A stretch of 62,447 nt of DNA, the filler included, from an uncultured Methanosarcinales archaeon (GTDB taxonomy: Archaea > Nanobdellota > Nanobdellia > Woesearchaeales > CAYSVS01), in assembly GCA_964434475.1 (NCBI GenBank). It is 3 parts of 3 records of this genome, joined end to end, with 100 filler letters (N's around TTAATTAATTAA, not from the genome) between each part and the next. Parts side by side here need not be neighbours in the genome. Positions count along the whole stretch, not along the records: positions 1 to 22,819 come from CAYSVS010000001.1; 2 more parts are not named here. The stretch is one strand, 5' to 3'. A program made the position numbers. This document shows, piece by piece, positions 1-3,000 of this stretch. Position 1 is the first letter of the stretch. The number at the start of each line of letters is the position of its first letter.

Positions 1-3000
1 TGCAAAATTAATAAATATAGAAATTGCAAGAATTTTCAAATCGTACAGTTTTTCTTTAAAATCAAAATAATTATAAACTAAAACCATAATGTCTTTGTCT
101 ATGCCGAAAAAAGAGGTTTATCAGGCTATAGCTACGCTGATGGGCACACTAATAGGTGCTGGTGTATTAGGCATACCTTTTGTTGTAGCTGAAGCAGGTT
201 TTCTGACAGGTGTTGCAATAATATTGCTTTTGGGTTTTGCTTTGATGCTTGTCAACTTTGCTGTTGGAGAGATTACTTTAAGAACCAATGGTAATCATCA
301 GTTAGCAGGATATGCTGGCATATATCTCGGAAAAAAAGGTAAATTCACGATGCTTATTGCTATGTTTCTTGTGAATTACGGTGCATTGATTGCTTATATT
401 GTCGGTGTAGGACAAAGCTTGTTTGCTATGACAGGCATATTAAATCCTCTTGTGTTTAGTTTTCTTTATTGGATTATAGTAAGTATGATTGTTTATATAG
501 GGCTAAAAGCTATCAAGGAATCTGAACTTGATTTTGGTCTGCTGATGCTTGCGATAATCTTGATTATCTGTTCTATTGCTTTATTATCTTCTCACTTTAG
601 TATTTCTAATCTCGGCAGTTTTGATATGACGAATGTATTCATTCCTTATGGTGTTGTATTATTTTCTTTTTTAGGAAGTACTGCAGTGCCTGAACTTAAA
701 GAGATACTTACTTCAGATAGAAAATATATGCAAAAAGCGATATTTTATGGGACCTTTATACCTATGGTGCTTTACATTATTTTTGCATTTGCTGTTGTCG
801 GTGTTTTAGGAAGTAGTACAACAAGCATAGCAACAATAGGTTTAGGAGAGTTGTATGGTAATTACATGGTCATCATAGCAAATATTTTTGCAGTCTTTGC
901 TATGACTACTAGTTTGTTAGCTTTAGGATTAGCGCTGAAAGAAGTGTATAATTATGATCTTCAGTTAGATAAAAATATTTCTTGGGTTTTGACAATGTTT
1001 ATACCTATGATTATAATATTTTTAGGTGTGAAAAATTTTATACATACTATTGATTTTGTTGGAAGTATAGCAGGAGGTATACAAGGTATATTGCTAATCC
1101 TTGTCTTTTGGAAAGCAGTCAAATATGGGGAAAGGGAACCAGAATATAAGATAGGAAAGCTTAAGTTTTTTGGATGGCTTTTGATGCTTGTTTTTGCGTT
1201 AGGAATTCTGTATCAGATTTTGCATAGGCTTGGATTGATGTAGTATGGATAATTTTATAAATCATTTATGGATTCTAATGAATATCTTCCTTGGAAGATC
1301 AAGGGGGTGTAGTATAACCTGGCTATATTTTAATTGGCATTATTATATTTTTAACTAAAGTTTACAATAAATTTTTAAACCTCCTATGTTTTTTTACTTT
1401 TAAATTATCATTTGGGGATGTAGTATAAACTGCTTCAACATATATGTTGGACAGGTACATCCTGGCTAGAATAGTCGGCTCCAGATGTTGGAGCGATGAG
1501 GCACTATGTGCTGATGAACTACAACAGGCTAAACCGTCGGATCTGGGTTCGAATCCCAGCATCCCCATCATTCCCTTATTCTTTTCATATTGTGATTTTA
1601 ATGTTTTATTTTAAATAATTTTTAAGCACTTTGTTTTTGTTGTCCTTATAAAGTAGTCATAAATAGAAACATTTATATATTAGTTATGGTTTATAGTATC
1701 TACTATATAGTGATATAAATGGTTTTGAAAGATTATTTGTCCAAAACAAAGAATATTCTTACAAGCGATGTGGGAGATTTAGCTAGTTCTATAAACAAAA
1801 AATTATCTGGAAATATGTTATATAGGTTAGCTTCTGGTGTGCCTTCTGTCGCTTACAGTGGATTGAAAAATAGCGCTAAGTTATGTACAAGGTCATCTGA
1901 ATATTTTGCTGGCAAAAATGGAGGAGAATCAGGATCTGAGATAGGCAAATATGTTTCGCTGCCGTCTGCTGCAGCATCTACTATACTTGGAGCAGCAGCT
2001 TTTGGTGCGCCTGGATTGATTATGGGTGCAATTTCAGCACCAGTTGTATCTGCAGGATCTGGTTATTGTTCCAGTTTGTTGGTTGAATCTCTTAAAGAGA
2101 CAAAAAACAAAGGTATTATTTCAGGTGCAAAGAAATTGGCTAAAGGAACTTTTGCTCCTATAAAATCTATACTTGATATTCCAGGAGATTCTTTCAATTA
2201 TCTTAATGGGATAGATATTTCTAAAGATAAGGAAACGTATGGAAACTTTACAGATGTTCTTAATTGTCTTTATTTTTTTATGGAAGACCTGAGAAATTAT
2301 GGAATTAATTCTGCTCCTGCTGTTAGAGAAGTTGTTTTTGAGAATGATGTCAATTTTGAAATGTATAATGATAAGCAGGTAAAATCCTTGGAAAAAATAG
2401 TCAAAAAAGTAAAAAAAGCAAAACAGAATATTCAGCAGGAATATGATGGTTGGAAAAAGGGTAATTTATCGGACGGTCTTTCTGGTTTTGAAAATTTTGC
2501 AAAGAATAAAACACAAGAATTTAAGGATAATGTAAGAGGCAACCTTTACTCTGTACTTGAAAAATATGTTGATGTTGAAGATAGTTTGTCTGATATGGAT
2601 AAATTATTTTTTGATGAATTAAATTCTGATGCTAGATATGATGTTATTAAGAAATTGTTCAAAAGACAATTTGATGATAACAGCAAAGAATACAAACAGT
2701 TTGTTAAGAAAAAAGATAATATTCTTGAACAAATACTTCCTGATGCTTATGCGCTTGTCCAGATGAGTGCTAAAGAAGCAATAGGTCTAGAGCATTATGA
2801 TGAACAGATTTTAGCAGGTATATCGCAAAATCAAGGTAAGATTATAAAGATGAGGACAGGGGAAGGCAAGACATTGACATCTGCTTTGCCTATATACCTT
2901 AATGCTTTAGCAGGCCAGTCACATTGGGTAACAAGGAACGAGTATGATTCTCAGAGGGATTTTGATAATTTTAGCAAATTATTTGATTATCTAGGATTAA

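Follow-up and report, generated by a model that had tools for sequence, protein, structure and literature searches.

According to a 2026 preprint covering 208 complete Nanobdellota genomes, tRNA-Trp is missing in 30 of 123 Woesearchaeales; the available portion of its text leaves open whether the gene was lost, split or undetected in this quarter of the Woesearchaeales, the tRNA finder being tRNAscan-SE. The 30/123 figure had been quoted in the genome-wide survey's note, and that portion of the text bears it out. A locus in the window (the whole stretch of Woesearchaeales DNA that was analysed, 62,447 nt) raises the same question for a single genome and offers a concrete, testable answer: tRNA-Trp is present and is cut by extra BHB introns. 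The best explanation of the whole is that positions 1414-1567, on the plus strand, are a functional two-intron tRNA-Trp(CCA) gene spliced by EndA and RtcB, which we consider very likely on the basis of the sequence.

The gene is 154 nt long and folds into a cloverleaf once both introns are removed. Its in silico spliced form, recognised by ARAGORN, has a perfect 7-bp acceptor stem (GGGGAUG/CAUCCCC) with A as the discriminator base, a T arm reading CUGGG-UUCGAAU-CCCAG and an anticodon loop, CUCCAGA, in which CCA follows U33; the mature body is 74 nt and the CCA end is not encoded. The anticodon stem is interrupted by the mismatch U28-U42; the D stem (G-U, U-A, A-A, U-G) pairs weakly, which is also the case in nearly all relatives. 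Three exons can be delimited, all on the plus strand: exon 1 (1414-1428, tRNA positions 1-15), bounded by the BHB rule and by the sequence of intron-less relatives, GTATAA|CCTGG; exon 2 (1461-1484, positions 16-37), with the anticodon CCA at 1481-1483; and exon 3 (1533-1567, positions 38-73), read from the spliced form. The genome-wide survey's note had described a 154-nt tRNA-Trp(CCA) gene with a 32-nt insertion in the D loop and a 48-nt insertion after the anticodon loop. The cloverleaf and the ARAGORN Trp call after excision uphold the first part of this description; the second insertion has the size given and lies inside the anticodon loop, at 37/38, rather than after it. A promoter-like A/T box (AUUUUUAAA, 1371-1379, plus strand) is found ~35-41 nt upstream of the gene, and boxes resembling it occur 25-50 nt upstream of 40 of 46 tRNA-Trp homologues, a count made without a shuffle control. 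Neither ARAGORN nor the excision scans found a second tRNA-Trp gene in this genome, which is 97% complete in 148 contigs. Next to the gene lie one gene of the Trp/Tyr-permease family and one that is SecA-like. At the locus, a contig from the probable source sample itself is identical in sequence, which is not an independent confirmation.

Why would such a gene escape detection? ARAGORN calls no tRNA at 1414-1567, either by default on the locus or with introns allowed over the whole genome, and at gathering score Rfam gives no match to the unspliced gene, RF00005 included; in E-value mode, the only match at the locus is tmRNA-like and runs through the acceptor and T arm. When gene positions 16-47 alone are removed, ARAGORN -i calls tRNA-Trp(cca) with a 48-nt intron; when the 48-nt piece alone is removed, ARAGORN calls nothing there. 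Finders that allow only an anticodon-loop intron therefore miss the gene because intron 1 is present. The survey's statement that standard tools miss or mis-name such genes holds, since Trp is missed by ARAGORN and Rfam, and the initiator tRNA-Met and tRNA-Lys genes described below are mis-named Gly(gcc) and Ile(aat) by ARAGORN -i. ARAGORN was the sole tRNA caller in all our scans.

Intron 1 (1429-1460, 32 nt, plus strand) lies in the D loop between tRNA positions 15 and 16, and a blind excision scan returned the same bounds. The MFE fold of the gene pairs gene positions 10-13 with 42-45, followed by a bulge at 14-16 and an inner hairpin, so that the BHB core consists of a 4-bp helix, GUAU:GUAC, between two 3-nt bulges on opposite strands. 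The 5' strand of this central helix (1423-1426) is the D-stem strand 10-13, invariant in the 21 genomes matched below, and its 3' strand (1455-1458) is an intronic mimic of a D-stem strand. The inner hairpin spans 1430-1454, and the fold together with the BHB rule predicts a cut after the second base of both bulge 1 (AA|A, 1427-1429) and bulge 2 (AU|C, 1459-1461). There is no outer helix beyond the central one, which U8 and A9 cannot form. The cut rule was taken from PMC4090602, which assigns bases 34/35 to the central helix of a 37/38 intron, and its application here gives GTATAA+CCTGG, exactly the D arm of the intron-less relatives. Two other excisions, of gene positions 17-48 (as first read) and 10-41, also lead ARAGORN to call Trp; both were rejected, as 16-47 is the only excision that obeys the bulge rule and restores the D loop seen in relatives. 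Among 401 genomes of the order, 21 match the 15/16 intron pattern, whereas the reversed pattern gives 3 hits; all 21 matches, from 19 genera, fall in Trp-like genes. The intron varies from 17 to 39 nt across these genomes, with 20 distinct hairpin sequences; the strict BHB motif is found in 20 of the 21, and the inner hairpin has at least 3 end pairs in 19 of the 21 relatives versus 6.4% of shuffles, a sign of covariation.

The blind scan, in which BHB motifs were excised throughout the genome, made 212,839 excisions and gave 21 junction-spanning calls, including five new clean tRNA genes; the reversed-genome control gave one call from 213,028 excisions. Along with Trp intron 1, at its exact bounds, it recovered tRNA-Lys(UUU), initiator and elongator tRNA-Met and tRNA-Gly(UCC). 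The survey had proposed that the initiator Met and Lys(UUU) genes are interrupted, and both were found as described: an initiator-type tRNA-Met whose single intron, of 29 nt, lies in the D loop (C82:4284-4387, minus strand) and a tRNA-Lys(UUU) that has introns of 19 nt in the D loop and 44 nt at 37/38 (C22:17116-17252, minus strand), each named by ARAGORN after removal. Their introns follow the BHB design of Trp, and the central helix is compensated, GUCU:GGAC in this genome (G000) versus GCCU:GGGC in its congener G002. A double-excision scan of 992,958 windows added only an 'Arg(gcg)' on C37, of low GC and regarded as spurious, besides numerous artefact calls built on a fragment upstream of the Trp gene. 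Among the tRNAs that the survey had listed as not found, elongator Met and Gly(UCC) are now located, and tRNA-Tyr is still absent from every scan of the genome (ARAGORN, single and double excision).

Intron 2 (1485-1532, 48 nt, plus strand) is placed at 37/38 by ARAGORN, a shift by one A being possible with the same product, and its identity in relatives is 71-84% throughout. Its BHB is a relaxed one: two of the four central pairs, those of C34 and C35 with GG in the intron, adjoin a bulge, AGA, and the other two are mismatched; a strict BHB at 37/38 is found in some relatives only. The gap acknowledged by the survey, that splice sites and BHB motifs had not been established, is in this way closed in silico for the D-loop introns and partly closed for the 37/38 intron. 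An inner helix of at least 4 bp occurs in 19 of 42 genes versus a fraction of 0.437 in shuffles, hence no excess over chance, by a crude test in which many 3' exons were poorly placed.

Intron 2 also contains a compact element (plus strand) facing the anticodon. It begins with UGGAG (1489-1493), complementary to C32-A36 with its middle G opposite C34, a motif present in 39 of the 42 motif-bearing genes among the 47 examined. At a fixed 2-nt spacing (42/47) follows AUGA (1496-1499), which is box D'-like and from which the base paired to C34 is the fifth upstream. Next come a hairpin (1500-1512), with 3 bp or more in 31 of the 42 genes versus 5.3% of shuffles and 40 distinct sequences, and GAUGA (1513-1517), which is box C'-like (a 3-nt bulge, GAU, plus a sheared GA); the hairpin would be the canonical stem of a putative K-turn. 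The AUGA-hairpin-GAUGA element, which has the form of an internal D'/C' K-turn if our interpretation of the boxes is followed, is present in 42 of the 47 Trp genes and its hairpin covaries. According to the N+5 rule, the target pairs with the fifth base upstream of box D/D' (PMC7994747), and in the same proportion of Trp genes, 42/47, this rule points at C34. We infer that the K-turn and guide are placed to methylate C34 (Cm34), a candidate function that would make intron 2 a very small methylation guide.

The element might instead guide no methylation and be a structural K-turn (e.g. one bound by L7Ae to help folding or to stabilise the intron) or an aid to splicing. This reading gains from the shortness of the guide duplex, only 5-6 bp where 10-12 nt is usual, from the lack of a terminal box C (RUGAUGA)/box D (CUGA) pair at the ends of the intron, and from the fact that, by eye, intron 2 contains no complement to the 3' exon that could act as a second guide, for position 39. 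We find it rather unlikely, because the fifth-base rule designates C34 so regularly and because the elongator tRNA-Met intron of the same genome has a matching design, obeying the rule with its guide letters changed to fit its own CAU anticodon loop.

Other alternatives concern the gene as a whole. A tRNA-Trp pseudogene, disabled by the D-loop insertion while a working copy resides elsewhere or in an assembly gap, would be in keeping with the U28-U42 mismatch, with the distribution of the genome over 148 contigs and with a decayed copy of the spliced tRNA-Trp 5' end (1303-1329, plus strand; 24 of 27 bases identical, by eye), which lies 85 nt upstream and probably outside the gene. However, the searches of the genome turned up no other Trp gene, the insertion keeps its BHB, with an inner hairpin that covaries over 21 genomes and 19 genera, and exon conservation equals that of single-intron relatives; we regard a pseudogene as very improbable. 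An integrase or mobile element was considered as the source of the upstream fragment and set aside, none adjoining the gene between its permease-family and SecA-like neighbours. More improbable still is that the fragment itself, from 1303, is the true 5' exon, followed by a giant intron of ~140 nt containing a second copy of the 5' end. It is true that GGGGGUG at 1303 also forms a stem with the 3' acceptor strand, one G-U included, and that the fragment has an intron-less D loop, but it diverges after ~23 nt, no BHB joining it to the rest was found (scans with one or two excisions yielded nothing there but ARAGORN 'Ile/Phe' artefacts), the A/T box (1371-1379) is situated downstream of the fragment at the relatives' spacing, and no such fragment exists within 90 nt upstream of the gene in the congeners G001 and G002. 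Trans-splicing of separate half genes, one option for 'missing' Trp in the available text of the preprint, which also places the split tRNAs of N. equitans in the same phylum, could draw on the orphan fragment at 1303-1329 and is the least credible reading of all, since every exon lies in order on one strand within 154 nt rather than in separate halves, the fragment decays after ~23 nt with no complementary leader seen on it, and the Trp gene is contiguous in 54 sampled genomes as well.

For the two-intron tRNA-Trp gene, a processing pathway may be suggested. The 154-nt precursor and a leader would be transcribed and then matured by the splicing endonuclease EndA and the ligase RtcB. At intron 1, the D-stem strand G10-U13 would pair with the intronic GUAC, the two 3-nt bulges would be cut and the inner hairpin would close the intron; at intron 2, the relaxed motif would combine pairing of C34 and C35 with the intronic GG, a bulge formed by A36 G37 A and an inner helix, UGUUG:CAACA. 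Before or after excision, UGGAG of intron 2 would pair with the anticodon loop beside the K-turn (AUGA, hairpin, GAUGA), which could place fibrillarin on C34 and lead to Cm34. The genome encodes EndA (a single gene, 173 aa, L031:1267-1788), RtcB, fibrillarin, Nop5 and L7Ae, and its EndA aligns gap-free to the strict-BHB enzyme of M. jannaschii, so that no additional loop pointing to a broad specificity was seen. A search for sequencing runs that contain the locus listed no RNA run. What was observed directly is the anatomy of the sequence, how it is conserved and covaries, and that the enzyme genes are present; from these we infer expression, cleavage, ligation and methylation.

Does the case extend to the order? 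Homologues of the gene were found in ~30 of 60 relatives, with conserved exons and with acceptor stems that differ yet stay paired; in L010 and L022, compensatory changes affect the D-stem pair 12:23. As the survey had reported, G002 lacks the D-loop insertion, has C5:G68 where G000 has A5:U68 and is 84% identical (over query positions 42-154), and a second member of the genus, G001, has its insertions elsewhere, with T-arm introns in initiator Met and Lys; the tRNA-Trp of G001 has a variable-region intron. By means of an anticodon signature (the anticodon loop, 4-10 nt, then UGGAGCGAUGA), 54 Trp genes were sampled in the order. ARAGORN with introns names 26 of them and misses or mis-names 28, and 25 of these 28 contain extra D-arm, T-arm or variable-region introns; the genes of G142 (contig C36) and G137 (contig C8) appear to hold five introns each. 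The survey's proposal that such interruptions explain the 'missing' Trp is supported by proxy, the misses being those of ARAGORN -i and the preprint's those of tRNAscan-SE, and extra introns probably explain the apparent lack of tRNA-Trp in relatives. It is tempting to speculate that tRNA-Trp is an intron-gain hot spot in this order, about half of the genes having between two and five BHB introns, spread over six sites (15/16, 22/23, 37/38, 45/46, 53/54, 59/60), with two five-intron genes; that the universal 37/38 intron is kept as a minimal single-K-turn C34 guide shared with elongator tRNA-Met; and that such genes, not split tRNAs or loss, explain the 'missing' tRNAs of Nanobdellota, a combination that we advance tentatively and rate just short of an even prospect. 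The signature finds interrupted Trp genes and the BHB-excision scan restores them, which bears on genome annotation, completeness scores and, for DPANN archaea, on claims of recoding or of lost tRNAs. The many natural variants of one intron site also provide material on what a single-subunit-type EndA can cut.

The gene is a further case of an already known type, the multi-intron archaeal tRNA genes of Thermoproteales and others (PMC4090602) and of DPANN (PMC5829648). According to the available portions of these papers, those introns are likewise protein-spliced, with a 4-bp helix between two 3-nt bulges, and PMC4090602 describes D-loop, variable and T-loop sites besides the 37/38 intron, in genes that standard finders miss. 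Unlike that set, the present gene comes from a DPANN-like order in which genomes are small and a single gene encodes EndA, and its central helix reuses the 5' strand of the D stem; positions 15/16 and 19/20, found here, are absent from the site list in the available part of PMC4090602, itself ending in 'etc.', and up to three introns per gene are given in the literature as available, where two relatives' Trp genes here appear to hold five. With the known box C/D guide introns of tRNA-Trp, intron 2 has in common its 37/38 location in tRNA-Trp (and elongator Met), its K-turn boxes, a guide to C34 and the presence of the RNP genes. It differs in having one K-turn only, a D'/C'-like pair around a hairpin, and a guide of 5-6 bp, with no position-39 guide or terminal box C/D found, and it is shorter, 42-48 nt in many genomes here versus a median of 65 nt. 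Nanoarchaeum equitans, of the same phylum-level neighbourhood according to the available text of the preprint, also processes disrupted tRNA genes at BHB motifs, but from split tRNAs, whereas every Trp piece here is in cis and in order, with no separate halves. In the red alga Cyanidioschyzon merolae, highly disrupted nuclear tRNA genes combine BHB introns of the D loop, of 37/38 and of the T loop within a single gene (PMC3728597); this is a eukaryote, with up to three introns, and RT-PCR and northern blots supply experimental proof there. In C. merolae, the outer introns are removed before the 37/38 intron (PMC3728597). As a minor observation with no bearing on splicing, the probable source sample also contains a second, low-depth contig resembling a relative's tRNA-Trp gene without the D-loop intron.

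The tRNA-Trp(CCA) gene occupies 154 nt on the plus strand (window 1414-1567, the same positions on contig C1) of a 1.50 Mb genome (33% G+C, 148 contigs). The locus combines the 5' end GGGGAUG, the 3' end CAUCCCC followed by A, a T arm CUGGG-UUCGAAU-CCCAG and an anticodon loop CUCCAGA. ARAGORN in default mode found a single tRNA in the entire window, at another place, and its intron-allowing mode (ARAGORN -i) called 25 tRNAs in the whole genome, none at this locus; Rfam gave no tRNA match here at the gathering score and, in E-value mode, only a tmRNA-like match built from the acceptor and T arm. 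In-silico deletion of gene positions 16-47 alone (window 1414 being position 1) led ARAGORN -i to report tRNA-Trp(cca) interrupted by a 48-nt intron; deletion of the 48-nt piece alone gave no call. These results confirm the observation, made in the genome-wide survey's note, of a tRNA-Trp missed by standard tools, and its reading as a multi-insertion tRNA is supported at the sequence level. A transporter of the Trp/Tyr permease family (window 89-1243, plus strand) is encoded directly upstream, which may be coincidence.

In the minimum-energy structure of the 154-nt gene sequence, positions 10-13 (GUAU) pair with 42-45 (GUAC), 14-16 (AAA) form a 3-nt bulge, 17-41 form a hairpin, and 46-48 (AUC) directly follow the helix on the opposite strand. 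The intron 1 region, as modelled, folds as a bulge-helix-bulge (BHB). With a 37/38 intron, bases 34 and 35 sit inside the 4-bp central helix according to PMC4090602, which puts each cut after the second bulge base. Cuts are thus predicted after A15 and after U47, which places intron 1 at gene 16-47 (window 1429-1460, plus strand). After the predicted joining, the D arm reads GUAU-AACCUGGCUA-GAAU, identical to that of insertion-free relatives.

A DNA search in 60 relatives returned about 30 clear homologues over query positions 42-154, a range beginning at the end of intron 1 (71-84% identity). Among 401 genomes of the order, the 15/16-intron pattern occurs in 21, spread over 19 of 258 genera; the reversed pattern gave 3 matches. 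GGGGnnGU(A/G) lies upstream of all 21, and the CUCCA anticodon follows the intron directly in 18, another insertion intervening in the other 3. These introns are 17-39 nt long, with 20 distinct inner sequences; at least 3 closing pairs are present in 19/21, versus 6.4% of shuffles, and 20/21 form a BHB under a strict definition. Judged on these sequences, the pairing pattern is covariation as would be expected for a structure read by an enzyme. Archaeal EndA recognizes the BHB independently of the tRNA body. The genome encodes RtcB and a single EndA (C4, 173 aa, N-terminal and catalytic domains), whose closest relative of solved structure is the catalytic subunit from N. equitans (E 9e-36). 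Its alignment with the M. jannaschii enzyme is gap-free and therefore no added loop is seen; such a loop should not be needed for strict BHBs like intron 1.

A split tRNA need not be invoked because the gene is contiguous, and a pseudogene is unlikely because the BHB of intron 1 covaries, the exons are conserved and genome scans contain no other Trp gene. A further reading concerns window 1303-1329, 85 nt upstream, where a copy of the first ~23 bases of the spliced tRNA-Trp (24/27 identical by eye) is followed by decayed sequence. Pairing between its GGGGGUG and the 3' acceptor strand of the gene would also be possible, but that this fragment is the true 5' exon is highly improbable: no joining BHB was found, and an A/T box (1371-1379) is situated downstream of the fragment. 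Comparable boxes stand 25-50 nt upstream in 40/46 homologues, a count made without shuffle control. The congeners G001 and G002 have no such fragment within 90 nt upstream; recombination or an older allele may have left it behind. An assembly artefact is argued against by the contig of the source sample itself, in which the tRNA-Trp sequence is unchanged, and by the recurrence of this intron site in 20 other genomes. In X1, a DNA run of the probable source sample, a second contig (498 nt, depth 3.6 versus 10.2) matches window 1301-1325 and 1540-1568; combining a 5' end like that of Trp with 68 other letters, an identical T arm and acceptor and different flanks, it is probably the Trp gene of a co-occurring relative without the D-loop intron.

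The contiguous, doubly interrupted gene was also recovered blindly. Every strict BHB in the genome (a helix of 4 bp, at least 3 of them Watson-Crick, bulges of 3 nt, an inner helix of 3 bp and an intron of 14-110 nt) was excised one by one and the product run through ARAGORN -i: 212,839 excisions yielded 21 junction-spanning calls, against 1 from 213,028 in the reversed genome. Of the 21, five correspond to new genes: Trp (the excised piece being exactly 1429-1460, plus strand), Lys(UUU) of C22 (a 19-nt piece following ..UCUGG), initiator-type Met of C82 (a 29-nt piece at 15/16), elongator Met of C26 and Gly(UCC) of C33. The others were known tRNAs called again, or artefacts drawing on the upstream fragment.

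The initiator-type tRNA-Met (C82:4284-4387, minus strand) has A1:U72 and three G-C pairs beside the CAU loop; its D loop is 39 nt long where relatives have AGUCAGGAGU, and its 29-nt intron, as read here, has GGGC:GUCC for its central helix, AG|A and AA|U for its bulges, and an inner helix of 9 bp. The tRNA-Lys(UUU) gene (C22:17116-17252, minus strand) carries a 19-nt intron after G19 and a 44-nt 37/38 intron, the central helix of the former being GUCU:GGAC here and GCCU:GGGC in G002, a compensatory change. Recovery of both by excision, with their BHB elements read, bears out the survey's claim that they are interrupted. Its statements on congeners, that initiator Met and Lys carry T-arm insertions there and that the G002 tRNA-Trp lacks the D-loop insertion, also hold. 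G001 has introns in the T arm of initiator Met, in the D loop and T loop of Lys and at 45/46 in Trp, and the G002 tRNA-Trp has the 37/38 intron only. Elongator tRNA-Met(CAU) (C26, ~1597-1757, minus strand), missed by ARAGORN, contains a 48-nt 37/38 intron and a 38-nt BHB intron at 59/60; Gly(UCC) (C33, ~6953-7078) and Ser(UGA) (C133:825-993), both on the minus strand, are interrupted at the same two sites. The 59/60 introns share a 3' end GAAAG|U and a central helix UUCA:UGAA. Arg(UCG) (C48, from 2286, plus strand) is interrupted by an N gap, and a gene read as Thr(GGU) (C14:17697-17786, minus strand) is named Phe(aaa) by ARAGORN -i.

Intron 2 is placed at 37/38 by ARAGORN. A GG at window 1527-1528 could pair with C34 and C35; A36, G37 and A then make up a bulge of 3 nt, and the inner helix joins UGUUG (1486-1490) to CAACA (1522-1526). 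The motif is relaxed because the other two central pairs are mismatched. The inner helix of close relatives has changed in matching ways (e.g. ACUUGU/ACAAG, UUAUUGU/ACAAUA). An automatic test of inner-helix pairing in 42 genes gave no excess over shuffles, and for this reason the relaxed BHB is rated as probable only.

The sequence of intron 2 is conserved across families, apparently because of a functional element. After the anticodon loop, 42/47 genomes have 4-10 nt, then UGGAG, 2 nt, NUGA (AUGA in 36 genomes), a hairpin and finally (C)GAUGA. Pairing within the hairpin amounts to at least 3 bp in 31/42, versus 5.3% of shuffles, among 40 distinct sequences. Among the 47, only a relative's tRNA-Trp (L048, G247:C3) has the 15/16 intron and lacks both the 37/38 intron and the element. 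Since its stem is immediately preceded by GA and followed by GAU-GA, we read the element as a putative K-turn of D'/C' topology. UGGAG is complementary to C32-A36, and the base facing C34 is the fifth upstream of AUGA, the target rule of box C/D-guided 2'-O-methylation as presented in PMC7994747. The 48-nt intron of elongator Met contains UGAG-AG-AUGA-GGCUUCGGCC-GAUGA, and its fifth base likewise pairs with C34 of the CAU loop. Genes for Fibrillarin, Nop5 and L7Ae are present. Compared with the known box C/D guide of tRNA-Trp introns, however, the element is smaller, with a single K-turn and a 5-6-bp guide, and has no guide for position 39.

According to a preprint (10.64898/2026.05.13.725050), tRNAscan-SE detects no tRNA-Trp in 30/123 genomes of Woesearchaeales, 9/54 of Pacearchaeales and 1/31 of Maxwellarchaeales; it keeps loss, split genes and detection failure as options, and the survey had quoted the first figure correctly. 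Kaneta et al. 2018 had earlier taken incomplete DPANN tRNA sets as a sign of unidentified disrupted genes (PMC5829648). We sampled Trp genes by a signature chosen as independent of extra introns, GGCUCCA-N4-10-UGGAGCGAUGA. Of 151 genomes drawn evenly, 55 contain it (reversed pattern, 0 matches), so that the sample covers genomes with the exact signature and excludes the other 96. Among 54 genes analysed (G133, an unpublished genome, being excluded), ARAGORN -i (introns up to 200 nt), a different caller from that of the preprint, named Trp in 26, nothing in 24 and a wrong tRNA in 4. Spliced alignment to our mature sequence, which is biased toward tRNA-like products, placed a D-arm, T-arm or variable-region intron in 25 of the 28 failures, and 22 of the 26 successes had the 37/38 intron alone.

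Multi-intron, BHB-spliced archaeal tRNAs are an established gene type, already reported in general terms for DPANN. New here are the genes themselves, the sites 15/16 and 19/20, at which a D strand is mimicked, the extent of extra introns in tRNA-Trp of this order, the minimal predicted C34 guide and the apparent five-intron genes of two relatives. The latter are tRNA-Trp loci L038 (G142:C36, ~2400-2700, minus strand, span 233 nt) and L033 (G137:C8, ~20740-21010, span 269 nt), both apparently with introns at 15/16, 22/23, 37/38, 45/46 and 59/60. In L038, four of the five introns have strict BHBs, the 15/16 intron has an extra A beside the helix, and the spliced product is a perfect cloverleaf. 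A literature search found no tRNA gene with four or five introns; the accounts consulted go up to three.

SecA is known as a bacterial protein. Downstream of the tRNA-Trp gene, the product of window 1719-6995 (plus strand) is 1758 aa long and has domains of the SecA DEAD, P-loop, preprotein-binding and wing/scaffold types, in a genome marked as archaeal by its splicing and C/D genes.
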